The notes under the pieces: model-generated
The model's database searches: none
What the model saw: the letters and a program-made list of their open reading frames with translations, nothing else
What the model was told of the DNA's origin: nothing
Made by a program: the position numbers and the translations under genes
Source: a bacterium
GTDB lineage: Bacteria; Acidobacteriota; Blastocatellia; HR10
Direction of reading: 5' to 3'
Assembly: GCA_041640655.1 (NCBI GenBank)
Contig: JBEPZV010000043.1
Location: 1-18,501, forward strand
DNA: 18,501 nt
In this document: positions 11,701 through 18,501 of the stretch, piece by piece
Position numbering within the stretch: the stretch's first letter is position 1
Layout of the letters: each line of letters opens with the position of its first letter

Positions 11701-12632
11701 TCGTTTTCGAATTGATCGTGAGCGATGGGCGCGCGGAGAGCGATCCCGATCTGGTGACCATCACCGTCAATCGGCGCCCGATCGCCAATGCCGGGCCGGA
11801 TCAGAGAGTGGACGAAGGGACGACGGTCACACTCGATGGGACAGCGAGTCGCGATCCGGATGGCGATGTGCTGACCTTCCGCTGGCGGCAAGTGGCGGGG
11901 CCAACGGTGGCGCTCTCGGATCCGACGTCGCCGCGCCCGCAGTTCACGGCTCCGGTCGTCGCGCCAACTATCCCGCCGCCGGTCACGCTGGTGTTCGAAT
12001 TAGTCGTGAGCGATGGGCGGCTCCTGAGTGCACTGGATCAGGTGGTGATCACCGTCAACCGGCGTCCGATCGCCAACGCAGGGCCGGATCAAACTGTGCC
12101 CGATGGTGCGCTCGTCACCCTGGATGGAACGCGCAGTTTCGATCCCGATGGCGACGGGATCACGTTTCGGTGGACGCAAACGGCCGGACCCTCGGTGACG
12201 CTCACGGGCGCGACGACGCCGCGGCCAAGCTTCACGGCGCCGAACCTCGGCGTGACGGAGGCGACGTCGGTGCGCTTGACCTTCTCGCTCGTCGTGAGCG
12301 ATGGGCGGTTGAGCAGCGCTCCGGATACTGTGGATGTCATCGTGCAGAACCTCATTCGTCTGGATGACAGCCGTCGCAGCGGCAATCGGCTCACGCTCAA
12401 TCTGGCGACGAACACGTTCGAGTTTCGCGCGGATCGCCTCAATCGAACCTTCACCGGGACGATCACGGAGATCGCGCGCGGCGTCGGCGATGGCCATCAG
12501 ATACGGATCGTGGGGACAGGACCGGAGGGGATCCGGCTCACCGTGAATATTGACATGCGTCGGAACGTCGCCACGGCCGTCCTCATGACCGCGCGTGAGA
12601 CGCTGACGCTCTTCACCGGTGAGGTGCGCTGA
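8757..12632 (+). CDS. Large secreted multidomain protein: FG-GAP/VCBS repeats, parallel beta-helix, 3 PKD-like domains and an unknown C-terminal domain (adhesin-like)
   Basis: SD GGGAGGG, GTG start, signal peptide. Five or more DxDxDGxxD repeats (DFDEDGRPD, DLDGDGHAD, DWDGDSRAD, DFDGDRRAD, HLDGDRKAD). Beta-helix region: VTTTSDSGPGSLRQA, GNxIG repeats, NDPGDADTGPNDLQNFP, GNTSEFS. Three PIAxAGPDQ...DPDGD...VSDG domains. Confidence 0.9.
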   Translation: MKRWLWVLVLGLVLPLRGDRTPPRAAEPAGGIRLADRLIRESAPLRAKGRVLALDAVRSEVWRDPATTFGILRPLSLEIEGEPGLRTLFERRGLVPRSLAVADFDEDGRPDGAAGFLAPWGGALVLSPGGVLEFEAVANRVSARAFAVPAVPKELQAGDLDGDGHADIVFADGIEARAFVLLGDGRGGFADPRAIALPVAPSVLVLAPRSGPPLGLLNRTILRVPVDLIVVGEREGRWHVARVRDGRVNEVALLPVPPAWHAVASLVTDWDGDSRADLLIAGGDRLLVFSDLSRGSLAHPDIIPLELSVRALVAGDFDGDRRADLALLDESGLRVDILWNASFERTSLRLSRAAHALASAHLDGDRKADLLALAAGVAELAVWSGDDLHRAKGPTDALAQDVEARAHSIALTAGCHPLAAFSIARHGVDDLLIVNRQEPGQSCPSAFHRLTAQANEILVTTTSDSGPGSLRQALLDANASPGPDVIRFRIPAGDPGFAAGVFTIRLQSPLPEIRGGGITIDGASQIAFTGATNGDRPVILLSGEVAGSASGLVLASDRNVVRRLILTRFIGADQAALVIRGGAENVIEGCLIGTNATGAGPAGNTTGVLLIEGARENRIGGMEADARNVISANTTGILLRGATTTGNLILGNFIGTTADGETALSNVDGVRIESQASGNRVGAPGAGNVIAGSVGNGIWIRAPGSSDRNIVQANRIGVSPSGAPLGNRISGVTISSGSENLIGGTEQGEGNLIAYQRGSGVQITGASRGNRVLGNVIRNNGELGIDLRGDGPTPNDPGDADTGPNDLQNFPVIATAVQRPGRLVLMGTLDTGAGDIRVEFFANTACHASGFGEGEIPIGAITVRATGDARNPAAFTVELPVTARGQVITATATDAVGNTSEFSPCVSVNAAPIADAGPDQLVDEGTEVTLDGTASRDPDGDPIAFSWRQVAGPRVALSDATSPQPRFIAPVVDPSVPPPVRLVFELIVSDGRAESDPDLVTITVNRRPIANAGPDQRVDEGTTVTLDGTASRDPDGDVLTFRWRQVAGPTVALSDPTSPRPQFTAPVVAPTIPPPVTLVFELVVSDGRLLSALDQVVITVNRRPIANAGPDQTVPDGALVTLDGTRSFDPDGDGITFRWTQTAGPSVTLTGATTPRPSFTAPNLGVTEATSVRLTFSLVVSDGRLSSAPDTVDVIVQNLIRLDDSRRSGNRLTLNLATNTFEFRADRLNRTFTGTITEIARGVGDGHQIRIVGTGPEGIRLTVNIDMRRNVATAVLMTARETLTLFTGEVR
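11478..12341 (+). repeat. Three tandem 288-bp intragenic repeats encoding 96-aa PKD-like domains
   Basis: Units start at 11478, 11766 and 12054 (exact 288-nt period). Units 1 and 2 are visibly more similar to each other than to unit 3. Confidence 0.92.
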
Positions 12633-12740
12633 CGCGAAGCGGCGCATGTCGGAGAAGGACTTTCGGCATTGTGGGAGCGAAGCCTTCGTGGCGCGATCGC
12701 GGGGCGAGACGGCGATCGGTTCATCTTCGGGGAGGAGGAC

Positions 12741-15368
12741 ATGGCAGTTCGATCTCCCGTGCGGACGCTCGTTCTGGTCGGGCTTCTTCTGGTGAATGGA
12801 CCGTGCCTGTTGGAGGGCTGGGCGCAGGAGCGGCGCGCACCGGTTGAGTCGGCGAATCAAACGGCTGCGACGACGACGGGCGGGACCAGTACAGGCCTCT
12901 TTCTGACGTTCAGTCCGCGGACGCTCCGTCGAGGCGAGTATACGCTGAGCGCCTCCTGGAACAATTTCGATCGCGATCCGGGTGATGTGGACATCAATCA
13001 GATCCCGGTCAGCTTCACCCTGGGACTGACCAATCGGCTGGAGCTGTTTCTGACGGCGAACGTCTTTCAGCAGGTGACCTCGCGGCAGCCTTTCGCACTT
13101 TCGGGCTATCAATTTCACGGCGTGCGCCAGGCCTTTGGTGGCGATCCGTTCGTCGCCTTCGGCGCTCCCGTTGGAGGTCGTGAGACGGCAGCGGCGTTCT
13201 TCCCCGTGAGTGGGGCGCGGTTGGGGGGAATTCTGCCTCCGCCGGGGAGCTTCTTCGGCCCTGCTCTGCTCGCCGATCGCCCGAGCTTCGTCCATGAGTG
13301 GCCTTTCTTCGGTCCGGCGACGTTTCTCTCGCGCGACATGGGCTTTGAGATCGCGCGTTCGGCCAACGGCATGGGAGACGTGACCGTCGGCCTGAAGGCG
13401 GCGCTCACGGAACCAGCGGGCTCATTCCCCCTGGCGCTGGCCGCCGTGTTGCGCCTTCCTTCGGCGCGGCATCTGGAAGCGCTCGCGCGCGGTCGCAGCT
13501 CGGGCGCGACCGATGTGGGCATCGTCCTGATCTCCGGTCAGAATTACCTGGGTCACCGCCTCCGCGTCGTGCAGAACATCGGGTACGTTCGCTCTGGAGA
13601 TCCGAAGCTGAGCGGCGTGAAGCTCCTGGATCGGCGCGATCAATTGCTGCTTCATGCGGGCGTGGAGATCGCTCCCGCTCAATGGCTCGTACTCGTCGCC
13701 GAATGGGCGAACGCGATCGCCGTCTCTTCGGGGACACCCAGTCTGAACGCCATCAATCCATCCGATCTGATTCTCGGCGCGCGTTTCTACGGATATGAGG
13801 GGCGCCTTCAGGTAGGCGGTGGGTGGCGACGGCTCTTGAATCAGTCGGATGGGCGCACGATCCCCGTCTTCCAACCCGGCGTGGGCGTGTCCGTGTTCGA
13901 CCTCGGTTCGCGAGATGCCAACGGCTTCATCGTCAACGTCGCGCTGGCGCGCCGCGCTTCGATCCTGCCTCCGCCTCCGCCGAATCGTGCGCCGAGCGTC
14001 ACGCTCTTTGTGGACCGCGCCGAGGTGCGCGATGGGGAGCGCGTGACTTTCGAGGCTCGCGCCTTCGATCCCGATAACGATGTGCTCACCTACACGTGGG
14101 CGATTGAACCTTCGGTCCCGCGCGAGGCCGTGCAGGCCGTGGGCGTGCCTCCGGGGAATCGCATCGCGCTCGATACGACGGGATTGAATCCGACGGCGGG
14201 AGCCCCACCGCGCACGTTCACCATCACCGTGCGCGTCGAGGATGGGCGTGGGGGGACGGCTTCGGATCGGCGCGCGATCGTGGTGACGTCGCCACCACCG
14301 CCTCCGCCTCCGCCACCACCACCCCCTCCACCGCCGAATCGTCCCCCGGTGATTCAGGAGATCGAGATCGCGCCCGTGGGAGCACCACAAGTCCCCGGAC
14401 AGATCACCGATGGTGATCTCGTGCGCGTTCGCGCCATCGCCCAAGATCCGGATGGCGATGTGCTCGTCTATCGCTGGAGTGCGACCGCCGGGCGATGGGT
14501 TGGCATCGGCAGCGAGATCACGTTCGATACGGCGGGGATCACGGTCGGCCCCGGAGGGCCGCCCGTCACCGTGACCATCACCGTGACGGTGGATGACGGT
14601 CGAGGAGGGACCGAAACGCGCTCGCGCGCGATCACCGTCGTCGCCGTGAAGCGCCCGGAGCCCATCCGGTTGCCCGCGCTCTTCTTCGCGCGTCCGAACG
14701 CGGCGCGCATCACCAATCTGCACAAGGCCATTCTCGATGACGCGGCCGATCGGTTGCGACAAGATCCGCGCGCCACGCTCGTCATTGATGGGCATCAAGA
14801 TCGCGCCGAGCGATCGGGCGTCGCCCGCACGCGAGCGCGCAACGCCGCCGACTATCTGATCCGACAGCGAGGTCTTGATCGCGCTCGCATTCGGATCCGG
14901 GATTTCGGCGCACGACGTCCTCATGAGAGTGGACGGCGGTCGAGGAATCGGCGCGTGGAGCTGTGGATTCTCCCAGCCGGCGCCGAGCTGCCGCCCGATG
15001 AGGCCGGAAGACCGCCAGAGGCTCAGAGGCACCAACGCGAGCCGGAGGCGTCAGCCGTGCGCGCATCGGCCGATCCGATGGACTCGCGTCTTGCTCAGGC
15101 GCTTCCGGTCACGATGGCTTCTTCGGAGCGGCCGGTCGGTGAAGTTCGTCGTCGTCCCCTTCGCGTGACGGCGCCTTCGGCAGCTCAACATCTACCGTCG
15201 GGCATCGCCCCCGATTCGTCCCCCTCTGTGCGAGAACGCCTTGCGGCGGATTCCCGCGCGCGGCTCTCACGGCGAGCGAGCCGCGCGAGGGCCGGTCGTG
15301 TCCGGCGAATCCGGACGGTCACGGTGACGTCTCCTGAGCGACTTCATCTGGCCCGCCGCCTTCGGTGA
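12741..15368 (+). CDS. OmpA-family envelope protein: N-terminal putative beta-barrel, two Ig/PKD-like domains, polyproline linkers, OmpA_C domain, basic tail
   Basis: SD GGAGGAGG, ATG 12741, signal peptide. GGTSTGLF...RTLRRGE and amphipathic strands. Two NRxP...DPDxDVL...V(E/D)DGRGGT domains. OmpA_C motifs IDGHQD, RARNAADYL and NRRVE. Confidence 0.85.
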   Translation: MAVRSPVRTLVLVGLLLVNGPCLLEGWAQERRAPVESANQTAATTTGGTSTGLFLTFSPRTLRRGEYTLSASWNNFDRDPGDVDINQIPVSFTLGLTNRLELFLTANVFQQVTSRQPFALSGYQFHGVRQAFGGDPFVAFGAPVGGRETAAAFFPVSGARLGGILPPPGSFFGPALLADRPSFVHEWPFFGPATFLSRDMGFEIARSANGMGDVTVGLKAALTEPAGSFPLALAAVLRLPSARHLEALARGRSSGATDVGIVLISGQNYLGHRLRVVQNIGYVRSGDPKLSGVKLLDRRDQLLLHAGVEIAPAQWLVLVAEWANAIAVSSGTPSLNAINPSDLILGARFYGYEGRLQVGGGWRRLLNQSDGRTIPVFQPGVGVSVFDLGSRDANGFIVNVALARRASILPPPPPNRAPSVTLFVDRAEVRDGERVTFEARAFDPDNDVLTYTWAIEPSVPREAVQAVGVPPGNRIALDTTGLNPTAGAPPRTFTITVRVEDGRGGTASDRRAIVVTSPPPPPPPPPPPPPPPNRPPVIQEIEIAPVGAPQVPGQITDGDLVRVRAIAQDPDGDVLVYRWSATAGRWVGIGSEITFDTAGITVGPGGPPVTVTITVTVDDGRGGTETRSRAITVVAVKRPEPIRLPALFFARPNAARITNLHKAILDDAADRLRQDPRATLVIDGHQDRAERSGVARTRARNAADYLIRQRGLDRARIRIRDFGARRPHESGRRSRNRRVELWILPAGAELPPDEAGRPPEAQRHQREPEASAVRASADPMDSRLAQALPVTMASSERPVGEVRRRPLRVTAPSAAQHLPSGIAPDSSPSVRERLAADSRARLSRRASRARAGRVRRIRTVTVTSPERLHLARRLR
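14292..14336 (+). repeat. Polyproline tract (15 consecutive Pro codons)
   Basis: CCN x15 between the two Ig-like domains, with mixed synonymous codons. Confidence 0.95.
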
Positions 15369-15370
15369 GG

Positions 15371-15398
15371 GCGCCTGTGGAGGGGCGGGCGTTTTTAT
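15371..15398 (+). terminator. Intrinsic terminator after the OmpA-family gene
   Basis: Stem GCGCCTGT/GCGGGCGT (with G-U pairs) followed by TTTTAT, 2 nt after the stop. Confidence 0.65.
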
Positions 15399-15407
15399 AC
15401 ATTTTCG

Positions 15408-15437
15408 TTGACAAAGTCGCCCTGCGTGGGCTATACT
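15408..15437 (+). promoter_or_regulatory. Near-consensus sigma70 promoter of the sulfite reductase operon
   Basis: TTGACA (15408-15413)-N18-TATACT (15432-15437), with AT-rich sequence upstream. Confidence 0.8.
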
Positions 15438-15447
15438 ACCGCCCGAC

Positions 15448-15615
15448 ATGACGCAGTCGGGAGGGCAGACGATGGCGTGTGGCGAACGGAGGGAGCTGAG
15501 GACGCGGGGTGAGGTGATGGAGCGCCGCGTCATGAGGACTGTAGCCTTCGTCTCCCGAATGCCTTGGGCATCGGAGGCGGGGAGCGCCTTCGCCGACGAC
15601 GTCTGTCGTCGCTGA
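15448..15615 (+). CDS. Putative leader peptide ending ...FADDVCRR (uORF)
   Basis: 55-aa open frame beginning just after the promoter. In-frame ATGs at 15448, 15472 (SD GGGAGGG), 15517 and 15532. Cys codon is third from the stop and lies in a hairpin. Confidence 0.5.
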   Translation: MTQSGGQTMACGERRELRTRGEVMERRVMRTVAFVSRMPWASEAGSAFADDVCRR

Positions 15616-15711
15616 ATCCCCACGTCGGACGATCCCACGATCGTCAGGTGAGTGCCTTCCTGTGGGGGTGTTGTCTCCCTCACCGGCGTGCATTCGGTCT
15701 GTAGTCGGACT

Positions 15712-17415
15712 ATGGACGATCTTCGACCGGGAGAGCAGAAGAGAGAGACGAAAGCCGCGCGGATCGAACGGCTGAAGGCGGCGAAGAACCCGTGGGCGCA
15801 TTTCGAGGAGATCCTGCGGTTCGCCGAGAAGGGGCATGAGGCGATCCCGCGCGAATGGCTGGAGACGTACTTCCGGTGGTGGGGGGTCTACACGCAGGGC
15901 GATGGTCGGGGGGTGTTCGGGCAGGCGACGCCCTATTTCATGGTGCGCATTCGCATCCCGAATGGTCTGCTCGTCTCGCATCAATTGCGGACGATCGCGG
16001 AGGTGGCCGAGCGCTACGCTCGGGGATTCGGGGACATCACCGTGCGGCAAAATATCCAGCTGCATTGGGTGCGCATCGAGGACATGCCCGACCTCCTCTT
16101 TCGTCTCTCTCGGGTCGGGCTGACGACGATGGGGGCTTGCGGCGATGACACGCGCAACATCACGGGTTGTCCGCTGGCGGGGATTGATCGCGATGAGATC
16201 TGCGATGCCTCACCTCTTGTCCTGCACGCGACGCGGATGTTGGTGGGGAACGAGGCCTTTTACAATCTGCCGCGCAAGTTCAAGATCTGCATCACGGGCT
16301 GTCGCGTGTGGTGCTCCTATCCGGAGATCAACGACATCGGGTTGACGGCCGTCGAGCGCATGGGACCCGGGGGGGAGCGGGAAGTTGGCTTCTCGGTGCG
16401 CGTGGGAGGGGGGCTCTCGACGGCCCCGCATTTCGGCGTGCGTCTGAACGCATTCGTTCGGTGGTCGCAGGTCTTGCCCGTCGTGCGGGGGATCGCCGAG
16501 ATCTTCCGCGATAGCGACGTCTTGCGCCAGGACCGGGCGAAGGCGCGCTTGAAATTCCTCTTCCTCGAACACGGGTGGACGGCCGAGCGCTTTCAAGAGG
16601 AGCTGGAGCGGCGCCTCGGCGTCCGACTTGATCCCGCCGTGGATGAGGAGGTGCCGGAGAACGTCTATCGGGATCATGTCGGCCTCCATCCGCAGAAGCA
16701 GGCGGGGTATTACTATGCGGGCTTCGCGATCTTGCGTGGGCGGATCACGGCCGAGCAAATGCGTCGCGCAGCCGATCTGGCGGATCGGTACGGCGATGGG
16801 CAATTGCGGACGACGAACATGCAGAATCTCGTCGTGCTCAACATTCCGGAGGCGCGCTTGGGCGCTTTTCTGCGGGAGGTCGAGGAGACGGATCTTCGGT
16901 TGGAGGCCTCTCCGTTCTGGCGTGGGGTGATCGCCTGCACGGGGACGGAGTTTTGCAAGCTGGCGATCGCTGAGACGAAGGCTTTTGCGCGGTGGGTGGT
17001 GGAGGAACTGGAGCGACGGCTGCCCGGATTCGACGAGCCGCTTAAGATCAACGTCAACGGGTGCCCGAATTCCTGCGGGCAGCATTGGATCGCCGATATC
17101 GGGCTTCAGGGGTGCAAGATGAAAGTCGGTGGGGAGCAGGTGGATGCTTTCGACATCCTCCTGGGAGGAGCCGTTGGTCGGGAGGCGACGTTCACGCGGC
17201 GCGTGGGCCTGAAGGTCCCGGCGCGTGAGATCCCGGACGTCCTGGAGCGGTTGCTGCGTGAGTACCTCCGGCGTCGGAGTCCGGGCGAGCGGTTTCATCA
17301 ATTCTGCCGGCGTCATAGCGAGGCGGAGCTGCGGGCCATGCTCGCTGGGGAAGCGGTTGAACCCGCGGTCGCTCCGCCGTGGCCGGGTCCACCGCCGCAC
17401 GGCGTGGAGGGATGA
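15712..17415 (+). CDS. Ferredoxin-dependent siroheme sulfite/nitrite reductase, SirA-like
   Basis: FRWWGVYTQ, TVRQNIQLH, GACGDDTRN, NLPRKFK, and siroheme/4Fe-4S ligand motifs ACTGTEFC and GCPNSCGQ. Start at ATG 15712 is inferred; it has no clear SD. Confidence 0.93.
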   Translation: MDDLRPGEQKRETKAARIERLKAAKNPWAHFEEILRFAEKGHEAIPREWLETYFRWWGVYTQGDGRGVFGQATPYFMVRIRIPNGLLVSHQLRTIAEVAERYARGFGDITVRQNIQLHWVRIEDMPDLLFRLSRVGLTTMGACGDDTRNITGCPLAGIDRDEICDASPLVLHATRMLVGNEAFYNLPRKFKICITGCRVWCSYPEINDIGLTAVERMGPGGEREVGFSVRVGGGLSTAPHFGVRLNAFVRWSQVLPVVRGIAEIFRDSDVLRQDRAKARLKFLFLEHGWTAERFQEELERRLGVRLDPAVDEEVPENVYRDHVGLHPQKQAGYYYAGFAILRGRITAEQMRRAADLADRYGDGQLRTTNMQNLVVLNIPEARLGAFLREVEETDLRLEASPFWRGVIACTGTEFCKLAIAETKAFARWVVEELERRLPGFDEPLKINVNGCPNSCGQHWIADIGLQGCKMKVGGEQVDAFDILLGGAVGREATFTRRVGLKVPAREIPDVLERLLREYLRRRSPGERFHQFCRRHSEAELRAMLAGEAVEPAVAPPWPGPPPHGVEG

Positions 17416-17419
17416 AGGC

Positions 17420-17713
17420 ATGAGGCGACGGGGTATCGTCTTGTTCGGCTCGCTCGCAAAGGCGCGGGACGGGAGATGGTCGTGTCCTCGCATGTGCATG
17501 TGTCGGGGCGCGCCAGCAGCGGGCCTCCGTGGGAGGGAGCGGCGAGGCGAGGATCACGGCGAGGCCCGCTCTCGGGAATTCCCGAAGCGGGCCTTTTCAG
17601 TGAGGAGGGAGAGCGATGGAGAACAGGCAGCAGTTGGAACACTTGCTCATCGGCCTGCCCTCGGAGGTGCAGGCGGAGATTCGTCGGTTTGCGGAGGAGA
17701 TCGAGGCCCTTGA
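17420..17713 (+). CDS. Putative Cys/Met-rich leader ORF (MRRRGIVLFGSLAKARDGRWSCPRMCMCRG...)
   Basis: ATG 4 nt after the upstream stop with SD GGAGGG. Cys codons at 17483, 17495 and 17501; Met at 17492 and 17498. The frame continues out of frame into the next gene. Confidence 0.5.
   Translation: MRRRGIVLFGSLAKARDGRWSCPRMCMCRGAPAAGLRGRERRGEDHGEARSREFPKRAFSVRRESDGEQAAVGTLAHRPALGGAGGDSSVCGGDRGP
17518..17597 (+). terminator. Attenuator: antiterminator (17518-17570) versus intrinsic terminator (17561-17597)
   Basis: GAGGCCCGCT (17561-17570) pairs either with upstream AGCGGGCCTC (17518-17527) or with downstream AGCGGGCCTT (17586-17595). The terminator has inner stem TCGGG-AATT-CCCGA and is followed by a short U-tract. 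Confidence 0.75.
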
Positions 17714-18501
17714 GGCCGGACGGCGCGATCCGGAGGATTTCAAGCGCTTCCGACTGGAGAACGGCGTCTATGGCATTCGGGGGGCGCCGGACCGGCACAT
17801 GGTGCGGGTGAAGGTGCGGTTTGGCCGGATCACGCCGGAACAGTTGGAGGCGCTGGCGGACATCGCCGATCGGTTCACGCCGAATCGGCGCGTGCATCTG
17901 ACGACGCGGCAGGACATCCAATTTCACGGCGTGCGGCGCGAGGATGTCCCTGTGGTACTTGCGCACATCGCGCGCGCGGGGCTGACGACGCGCGAGGCGT
18001 GTGGCAACACGGTCCGCAACGTCACGGCCTGCGCGCTGGCGGGCATCTCGCCGACCGAGGTCTTCGATGTGACGCCTTATGCGGATGCCGTCTCGCGCTA
18101 TTTCCTGCGCCACCCCATCGCGCAGAATCTCCCGCGAAAGTTCAAGATCGCTTTCGAGGGGTGTCGTGAGGACCATGCGCGCGTGCGGATTCACGACATC
18201 GGAGCCGTCGCCACCGTGCGCGAGGGGCAACGCGGGTTCCGCTTGTACATCGCCGGAGGATTGGGGGCTCAGCCGCGCGCGGCCGAGGTGCTCGAGGACT
18301 TCACGCCAGCTGATCTCTTGATCCCCACCTGTGAGGCCGTGCTTCGCATCTTCGATCGGCATGGGGAGCGCCGACCCGAGCATACGTTTCGCATGCGGGC
18401 GCGGATGAAGTTCCTGGCGCGGCAGTGGGGGATCGAGCGGTTGCGCGAGGCCATTCTCGCCGAGCGCCGCGTGCTCCTGGCCACGCGGTCGGGACGAACG
18501 C
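17616..18501 (+). CDS. Second siroheme sulfite/nitrite reductase (3'-truncated; absent from ORF track)
   Basis: SD GAGGAGGGAG, ATG 17616. My translation: MENRQQLEH...FKRFRLENGVYGIR...HMVRVK...HLTTRQDIQFH...TREACGNTVRNVTAC...NLPRKFKIAFEGC...GGLG...RARMKFL. Open to the window end. Confidence 0.92.
   Translation, partial: MENRQQLEHLLIGLPSEVQAEIRRFAEEIEALEAGRRDPEDFKRFRLENGVYGIRGAPDRHMVRVKVRFGRITPEQLEALADIADRFTPNRRVHLTTRQDIQFHGVRREDVPVVLAHIARAGLTTREACGNTVRNVTACALAGISPTEVFDVTPYADAVSRYFLRHPIAQNLPRKFKIAFEGCREDHARVRIHDIGAVATVREGQRGFRLYIAGGLGAQPRAAEVLEDFTPADLLIPTCEAVLRIFDRHGERRPEHTFRMRARMKFLARQWGIERLREAILAERRVLLATRSGRT

Follow-up and report, generated by a model that had tools for sequence, protein, structure and literature searches.

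A conserved upstream open reading frame with a minor cysteine codon near its stop precedes a sulfate assimilation operon in a genus of hot-spring Acidobacteria

Introduction

Ribosome sensing of cysteine is known from Actinobacteria. Leaders predicted for actinobacterial cys operons carry Cys codons near the stop codon and lack a terminator, and a Rho route is proposed for them (Seliverstov et al. 2005; PMC1262725). For the polycysteine leaderless short open reading frames (sORFs) of mycobacteria, a cysteine response was shown experimentally (Canestrari et al. 2020; bioRxiv 10.1101/834739), and that report defines published Cys attenuators by at least two consecutive Cys codons. Here we describe an upstream open reading frame (uORF) of 47 codons plus a TGA stop (MACG...FADDVCRR; 15472..15615, forward strand), which lies directly in front of a siroheme reductase gene in a window of 18,501 nt. 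The window is the whole of contig C43 of G000, a metagenome-assembled genome (3.1 Mb, 64% G+C, 89.8% complete), and coordinates given without a contig name are those of the window.

The uORF resembles the actinobacterial Cys leaders in being a short ORF before cysteine/sulfate-assimilation genes, with Cys near its stop and no intrinsic terminator; control of Rho or of the ribosome-binding site by a ribosome awaiting Cys-tRNA(Cys) was proposed (2005) or shown (2020) for those leaders (PMC1262725, 10.1101/834739). Compared with them, the uORF differs in having a single Cys, in being led by a Shine-Dalgarno (SD) sequence rather than leaderless, in its length of 47-49 codons, in the conservation of its 20 C-terminal residues, in the absence of a conserved sequestering duplex, and in belonging to the Acidobacteriota. 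With TnaC (PMC8450073, PMC8429421) and SpeFL (bioRxiv 10.1101/604074), ribosome arrest peptides that sense metabolites and work at or close to their stop codon, it shares a conserved tunnel-length C-terminus at a UGA stop, a variable N-terminus, and a long spacer without intrinsic terminator before the regulated gene, with Rho available. It has no sequence relationship to either, arrest is only a proposal here, and the operon is anabolic, so a ligand-induced "ON" response would need a starvation signal and not the end product. Like the trpL/hisL-type attenuators, the uORF lies upstream of a biosynthetic operon; unlike them, it has neither a run of Cys codons (one Cys codon in 11/13 peptides, two consecutive ones in P0003 and P0007) nor a terminator/antiterminator. 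What sets the uORF apart is its design, with one invariant rare Cys codon beside the stop inside a selected 20-residue peptide. No equivalent was described in the literature that we searched on Cys leader peptides, polycysteine sORFs, arrest peptides, and Rho-dependent leader ORFs (supplements excluded).

Results and discussion

The uORF was confirmed to be a real gene. Reductase 1, the gene downstream of the uORF, was used as the query in 41 related genomes, and reading the DNA upstream of its matches showed that four further members of the genus (G001, G002, G004, and G006) carry this promoter together with an ORF homologous to the uORF. A peptide-profile search of 5.8 billion proteins returned 12 clusters, all of 48-55 aa and all representing the same uORF. 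An exhaustive hidden Markov model (HMM) search of 1.84 billion representatives gave four true matches and two false ones (the repeat proteins P0013 and P0014); three true loci and one false were found in 185,579 species genomes, and eight true loci and one false in metagenome contigs. At all 13 orthologous loci, the uORF lies directly upstream of reductase 1, between a conserved promoter and the reductase, and has a GGGAGG-type SD sequence 5-8 nt before its ATG, 47-49 codons, and a TGA stop (15613-15615 in G000). Conservation of the TGA itself is uninformative because 551 of the 666 long ORFs of the genome end in this codon. The conserved start is ATG 15472; an alternative ATG at 15448, which would extend the product to 55 aa, is not conserved in other species. 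Public protein sets from gene callers already contain the product as a protein of 48-55 aa, which annotation pipelines call merely "hypothetical."

Among 301 genomes of the class searched in six frames, strong matches were confined to five of the seven genomes of the genus (G000 included), and the two members without the uORF also had no match to reductase 1. Seven weak six-frame matches in other genera lacked both a Met start and a stop behind the motif and were set aside as noise. Two further candidates were dropped, one lying antisense within a 483-aa ORF with no stop after the motif (L035) and the other inside a long ORF (L044). In G009, which belongs to another family, the uORF is absent at a 62%-identical orthologue, where the reductase directly follows another gene. 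By these searches, the uORF family is confined to one genus of hot-spring Acidobacteria. The peptide had no match in Pfam, NCBIfam, or the ESM Atlas and no homology to the arrest peptide families described in Pfam/NCBIfam and reached by the HMM searches; its sole relatives were copies of the same uORF. At gathering thresholds, Rfam 15 had nothing in the whole window, and at E<=10 there was nothing credible in 15350-15800, just an archaeal snoRNA model at E = 6.5.

Selection on the uORF is concentrated at its C-terminus. Selection statistics were computed from 11 distinct nucleotide sequences, and the peptide alignment held 13 distinct peptides. The ratio of nonsynonymous to synonymous change (pN/pS) is 0.265 over the last 20 codons (...SRMPWASEAGSAFADDVCRR; 15553..15612, +), whereas in codons -30 to -21 the ratio reaches 1.16 and in the first 15 codons it is 0.90. 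Evolution of the first 27 codons is neutral, yet frame and length are kept (47-49 aa), and indels inside the uORF are of whole codons only. Variable columns among the last 22 codons are three-periodic, falling 9/7/16 at codon positions 1/2/3. Nucleotide identity (mean pairwise, eight lineages) is 0.87 in the promoter block, 0.67 in the 5' untranslated region (UTR), and 0.64 in the first 81 nt of the uORF; it is 0.83 in the last 60 nt plus the stop, level with the reductase coding sequence (0.83-0.85), and 0.53 in the spacer that follows, level with unrelated upstream DNA (0.54). The pattern of selection and identity therefore indicates that the uORF frame is translated. Residues M1, R19, P31, W32, S34, E35, A39, A41, D42, D43, C45, and R47 are invariant, and all 13 peptides end in ...ADDVC(R/C)R-stop, in its longer form PWxSExGxAxADDVCRR. 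Judged from the alignment, the preserved stretch is about as long as the ribosomal exit tunnel and adjoins the stop codon. Such a combination of a conserved, tunnel-length C-terminus and a neutrally evolving N-terminus is typical of nascent-chain regulators, not of folded small proteins. Since the whole C-terminal 20 residues are conserved as protein, beyond the Cys codon, the uORF is not a plain "hungry codon" leader.

The candidate sensor codon is the invariant Cys codon three codons before the stop (15604..15606, +). It is the minor codon TGT in 11/11 distinct sequences, as is the extra Cys codon of L005, and the Arg codon after it is CGT in 9/11; in the long ORFs of the genome, TGT makes up 25% of Cys codons (TGC, 75%) and CGT 10% of Arg codons. 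A poly-Cys leader further along the same operon, described below, also prefers TGT, which makes the invariant TGT of the uORF credible as a sensor codon. The Cys codon spans the loop and 3' arm of a terminal hairpin, CGACGAC-GTCT-GTCGTCG (15594-15611), which can be extended by TCG/TGA pairs to 15590..15615 (+); the extension puts the UGA stop in the stem, and the U's of TGT and CGT pair with A's. Among nine distinct sequences the hairpin is kept in eight, by G.U wobble where it varies: of five one-sided changes in the stem, four lead to G.U and one (L042) to A.C. Compared with synonymous recodings drawn from genome codon usage, the G000 hairpin falls among the most stable 4%, five others among the top 4-9%, and L042 at 27%; these values are not independent, because the sequences are related. 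The hairpin is compatible with selection, which is unproven.

Reductase 1 (15712..17415, +; NIR_SIR, NIR_SIR_ferr) is a 567-aa SirA/NirA-like siroheme [4Fe-4S] ferredoxin-dependent sulfite/nitrite reductase. Its best solved relative is M. tuberculosis NirA (1zj8, 333 bits), which is functionally a sulfite reductase; plant nitrite reductases come next, at ~280 bits. Reductase 2 (17616..18501, +; NIR_SIR) runs off the end of the contig. In sister genomes with longer contigs, the operon order is reductase 1, reductase 2, tetrapyrrole methylase (SUMT), a sirC/CysG-N-like siroheme synthase part, and PAPS/APS reductase (cysH). The operon is one of sulfate assimilation, and with reductases, a uroporphyrinogen methylase, a sirC-like gene, and a PAPS/APS reductase, its end product is therefore cysteine sulfur. 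As in classical attenuators, the leader adjoins the biosynthetic operon of its presumed regulating amino acid. In a metatranscriptome run, a contig of 324 nt, 97% identical, spans 15487-15810, and a second RNA-library contig, which belongs to a strain like G001, links the end of the uORF to the reductase start through the 104-nt spacer of that strain; neither contig extends upstream of the promoter. The contigs argue weakly that leader and reductase share one RNA, since they give no transcription start site (TSS) or strand and DNA carry-over is possible. RNA run X2 yielded one short, poor match and was not used.

Much of this arrangement had been anticipated in a first-pass annotation of the window, made from the sequence alone. 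The strong promoter that it saw upstream of reductase 1, the uORF, and every hairpin that it listed are present where it placed them. The search that it suggested, for short ORFs with a conserved C-terminal motif upstream of homologous reductases, found them at the 13 loci of the one genus, and conservation of the C-terminal motif, on which it had staked the idea, extends to all 13 distinct peptides. The sulfur operon that it assumed is supported by the gene content, transcription across the leader weakly by the joined RNA-library contigs of the two strains, and the series of two different sulfur-sensing leaders by the poly-Cys leader.

On the comparative data, the reading that we favor, at about even odds, is that the uORF is a cis-acting conserved-peptide leader in which a pause at the UGU/UGA end reports cysteine supply with the nascent chain helping. 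Transcription would begin at ~15444 from the operon's own strong promoter, and ribosomes would load at the strong SD sequence and translate the 47-codon uORF. The regulatory event would be a pause at its 3' end, when the A site contains either UGU (15604-15606) or the UGA that follows three codons on; during the pause, the conserved last ~20 residues would fill the exit tunnel, and the terminal hairpin would be melted by the ribosome. Scarce Cys-tRNA(Cys) would lengthen the pause and raise reductase 1 expression, while with plentiful cysteine the ribosome would terminate and leave, and the long untranslated spacer would be open to Rho or decay. We infer cis action, cysteine as the signal, the direction in which expression responds, and the route of output; for this route, we favor Rho or mRNA fate above an unmasked start codon. 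Rho is encoded twice in the genome, with the Rho RNA-binding domain at C9:8467-8688 and C2:182111-182332 in frames of 442 and 485 aa.

Several observations weigh against a cysteine-reporting pause. The uORF has a single Cys codon (two in 2/13 peptides), as opposed to the consecutive Cys codons of the published attenuators, and if only that codon mattered, the conserved 20-residue peptide would be unexplained. No conserved downstream element ties the pause to an output. Scanning for intrinsic terminators found just a weak 5-pair site at 15656-15668, and no stem with a U-tract appeared among 11 folded spacers, so the earlier remark that the leader holds no U-tract terminator stands. The rut-like C>G skew expected of a Rho route exceeds the 0.86 percentile behind the stop in just 4 of 11 scored leaders and is absent in G000. 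In 11 leaders, modeling a ribosome on the Cys codon, on the stop codon, or across the entire uORF shifted the accessibility of the reductase start little and in no consistent direction. RNAalifold, applied to the last 84 nt of the uORF plus 12 nt, found compensatory changes at 0 of 20 predicted pairs, with a covariation term of -1.23. All of the evidence is comparative, drawn from a single genus.

A spacer (15616..15711, +) of 96 nt in G000 separates the uORF stop from the reductase start. Among orthologues it is 69-108 nt long, and it is not conserved apart from its first bases: the six bases after the stop read ATC-YYC in 8/11 sequences, a weak conservation that lies roughly within reach of a ribosome sitting on the stop codon. 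Three stems can be drawn in the G000 spacer, namely GACGATC-CCAC-GATCGTC (15628-15645, +), GGTGAG/CTCACC (15647-15652 and 15679-15684, +), and GTCTGTAGT-CGG-ACTATGGAC (15697-15717, +), the last of which covers the ATG at 15712. They were found just in G000 and its two nearest relatives, and the spacers of other species are unrelated. The minimum free energy of the leader is -131.4, against -125.3 +/- 5.3 for shuffles (z = -1.16; 30 of 200 shuffles at least as stable); the uORF thus exceeds chance and the leader fold does not. As a separate observation, the spacer length is a multiple of three in six of eight lineages (96, 69, 108, 81, 90, and 84; the others are 98 and 76), which may be chance and depends on the reductase start chosen. 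A readthrough fusion of uORF and reductase was rejected on account of an in-frame TGA at 15649-15651.

Translational attenuation by these stems, in which the hairpins at 15628-15645, 15647-15684, and 15697-15717 bury the reductase ATG until a ribosome stalled at Cys opens them, was the mechanism put forward in the first-pass annotation. A mechanism of this kind is proven for a mycobacterial polycysteine sORF in the available part of the source (10.1101/834739), and the stems do exist in the G000 lineage. We nevertheless regard it as very unlikely here, because the spacer is conserved neither in sequence nor in length, a stalled ribosome would sit ~90 nt from the ATG, the modeled probability that the start is unpaired changes little and inconsistently, and the leader folds no better than shuffled sequence. 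The earlier proposal of Cys-dependent attenuation survives in part, with a real and conserved uORF before a sulfur operon, and its start-codon switch lacks support. An untranslated RNA element (a riboswitch or small RNA) whose conservation merely looks like that of an ORF is hardly credible. Retention of the 3'-end hairpin with G.U wobbles could be read in its favor, set against three-periodic substitutions, the low C-terminal pN/pS (0.27), an SD sequence and ATG at every locus, indels all in multiples of three, and the lack of both an Rfam match and covariation. A constitutive "housekeeping" uORF, the translation of which would guard the long leader from Rho and RNases or boost downstream translation while sensing nothing, would agree with the strong SD sequence near the 5' end and with the failure of folds and accessibility models to reveal a switch structure. 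It leaves the purifying selection on 20 residues, the invariant Cys, and the fixed rare TGT and CGT codons unexplained, and we give it little credit.

The main rival, though an unlikely one in our estimation, is a free small protein of 47-49 aa that is encoded by the first gene of the operon and acts in trans, for example as a reductase partner or regulator by way of the acidic/basic tail that bears the Cys. Selection at the protein level, a strong SD sequence, a constant length, the listing of the product by gene callers as a protein of its own, and the failure of folds, accessibility models, and C>G skew to identify a cis output element are all points that a trans-acting product would accommodate. 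Such a protein would, however, have a neutral stretch of 27 residues at its start and belong to no family. Its AlphaFold2 model is not confident (mean pLDDT 66, pTM 0.34, two low-confidence helices). A predicted complex between reductase 1 (21-row alignment) and the peptide (13-row alignment) reached scores of 0.00 and 0.01, which count neither way. Also at odds with a free protein are the rare codons fixed at the ORF end, the partial conservation just past the stop codon, and the fact that the gene is never apart from its promoter and reductase (13/13 loci, with nothing else in the 301 class genomes). The neutral N-terminal 60% and the strict tie to a single promoter speak for action in cis, with action in trans less probable. 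If the product is a free microprotein, it would be an uncharacterized partner of siroheme sulfite reductases.

A bolder form of the leader-peptide hypothesis is that the uORF encodes a new ribosome arrest peptide: the nascent PWxSExGxAxADDVCRR and the ribosome together would sense sulfur status, and by stopping at the UGU/UGA end the ribosome would determine the access of Rho or the fate of the mRNA. The signal might be the supply of Cys-tRNA, to which the nascent chain would make the ribosome hypersensitive, or else a small metabolite of sulfur, for example O-acetylserine, sulfide, or cysteine. We regard this version as doubtful; if true, bacterial sulfur assimilation would gain its first nascent-chain sensor, with a classical poly-Cys attenuator standing in series on the same operon. 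More generally, if the peptide joins in the pause, the sulfur pathway would be represented among the very few bacterial nascent-chain sensors (TnaC, SpeFL, and a handful of others), and two different ribosome sensors would stand in series on one operon.

The poly-Cys leader lies inside the operon, between the two reductase genes (17420..17597, +). In G000 its ORF begins at ATG 17420, and Cys is encoded at 17483, 17495, and 17501. Just before the SD sequence of reductase 2 stands a conserved intrinsic terminator, GGCCCGC (17563-17569)/GCGGGCC (17587-17593) followed by TTTT (17563-17597, +). Across relatives, the ORF starts 4-7 nt after the beginning of the reductase 1 stop codon (a TTG at +17 in L042) and contains 3-5 Cys codons in clusters such as CSCPCLCMC (SCPRMCMC in G000), 33 of the 38 Cys codons being TGT. 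It is 34-42 aa long in 9/10 sequences, with the terminator ~25 nt after its end in relatives, and 97 aa in G000, where no stop occurs before the terminator; an 11-nt alignment gap in G000-type sequences may have removed the usual stop. The uORF and the poly-Cys leader share an operon, a presumed signal, and a preference for TGT. They differ in that the poly-Cys leader has several Cys codons and a conserved terminator hairpin, whereas the uORF has one Cys, no terminator, and a conserved peptide. The poly-Cys leader shows that this lineage uses ribosome sensing of cysteine, the presumed signal, on the same operon, preferring a wobble-read minor codon. Rfam searches of 17380-17660 and of the L018 leader described next gave nothing credible.

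Cys-ended uORFs were also sought before the class's other NirA-like genes, and just one pair was found, L018 (1100-1510) and L020, from two genomes of genus g5 in the same order. In these two closely related sequences, a conserved promoter and a short ORF lie ahead of a NirA-like gene, with a strong intrinsic terminator just before the SD sequence; the ORF ends ...YVLLYAR[WR]RREGGCG[LF]-stop, has a single Cys, and has no Rfam match. The tandem reductases of the G000 operon are themselves diverged NirA/SirA-like proteins, ~35% identical; reductase 1 is closest to M. tuberculosis NirA, and reductase 2 is equidistant from plant nitrite reductases and 1zj8.

Two large PKD/FG-GAP/OmpA surface-protein genes lie 5' of the uORF leader, the last stop being at 15368, and the genes in this position differ among orthologous loci. 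The leader is the start of its own transcription unit, because a terminator-like hairpin with a 14-pair stem and a T-run (15365..15398, +) ends the upstream OmpA/PKD gene. The promoter block (15392..15437, +) consists of an AT-rich upstream part, a -35 element TTGACA (15408-15413), and, 18 nt further on, a -10 element TATACT (15432-15437). This near-consensus sigma-70-type promoter (11/12 matches) is the sole strong one of its type within 12000-18501 (shuffle mean, 0.6), and the block is kept in 11/11 distinct leaders. The TSS is predicted at ~15444, and with TSSs predicted in this way, the 5' UTR of the uORF would be 16-32 nt among leaders. Folding of 11 leaders gave a 5'-terminal hairpin, CCCGAC (15442-15447)/GTCGGG (15456-15461) in G000 (15442..15465, +), the 3' arm of which overlaps the uORF SD sequence GGGAGGG (15459-15465). 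Most of the leaders form a comparable stem, which L037 and L042 show weakly or not at all; its role could be to set uORF translation or to shield the 5' end.

A 21-nt block at the -35 element (15399-15419; ACATTTTCGTTGACAAAGTCG) recurs with 2 mismatches elsewhere in G000, at C3:117709 (L061:710-3312). The operon behind this near-copy encodes a Urate_ox_N-like membrane protein, a 119-aa protein, and DsrE-like and TusA-like proteins, and its leader has its own 35-aa ORF, unrelated to the uORF. The block may be a shared operator or a UP/-35 module of a sulfur regulon. Because it recurs before a DsrE/TusA operon, a transcription factor common to both operons may add a layer of control to that of the leaders.

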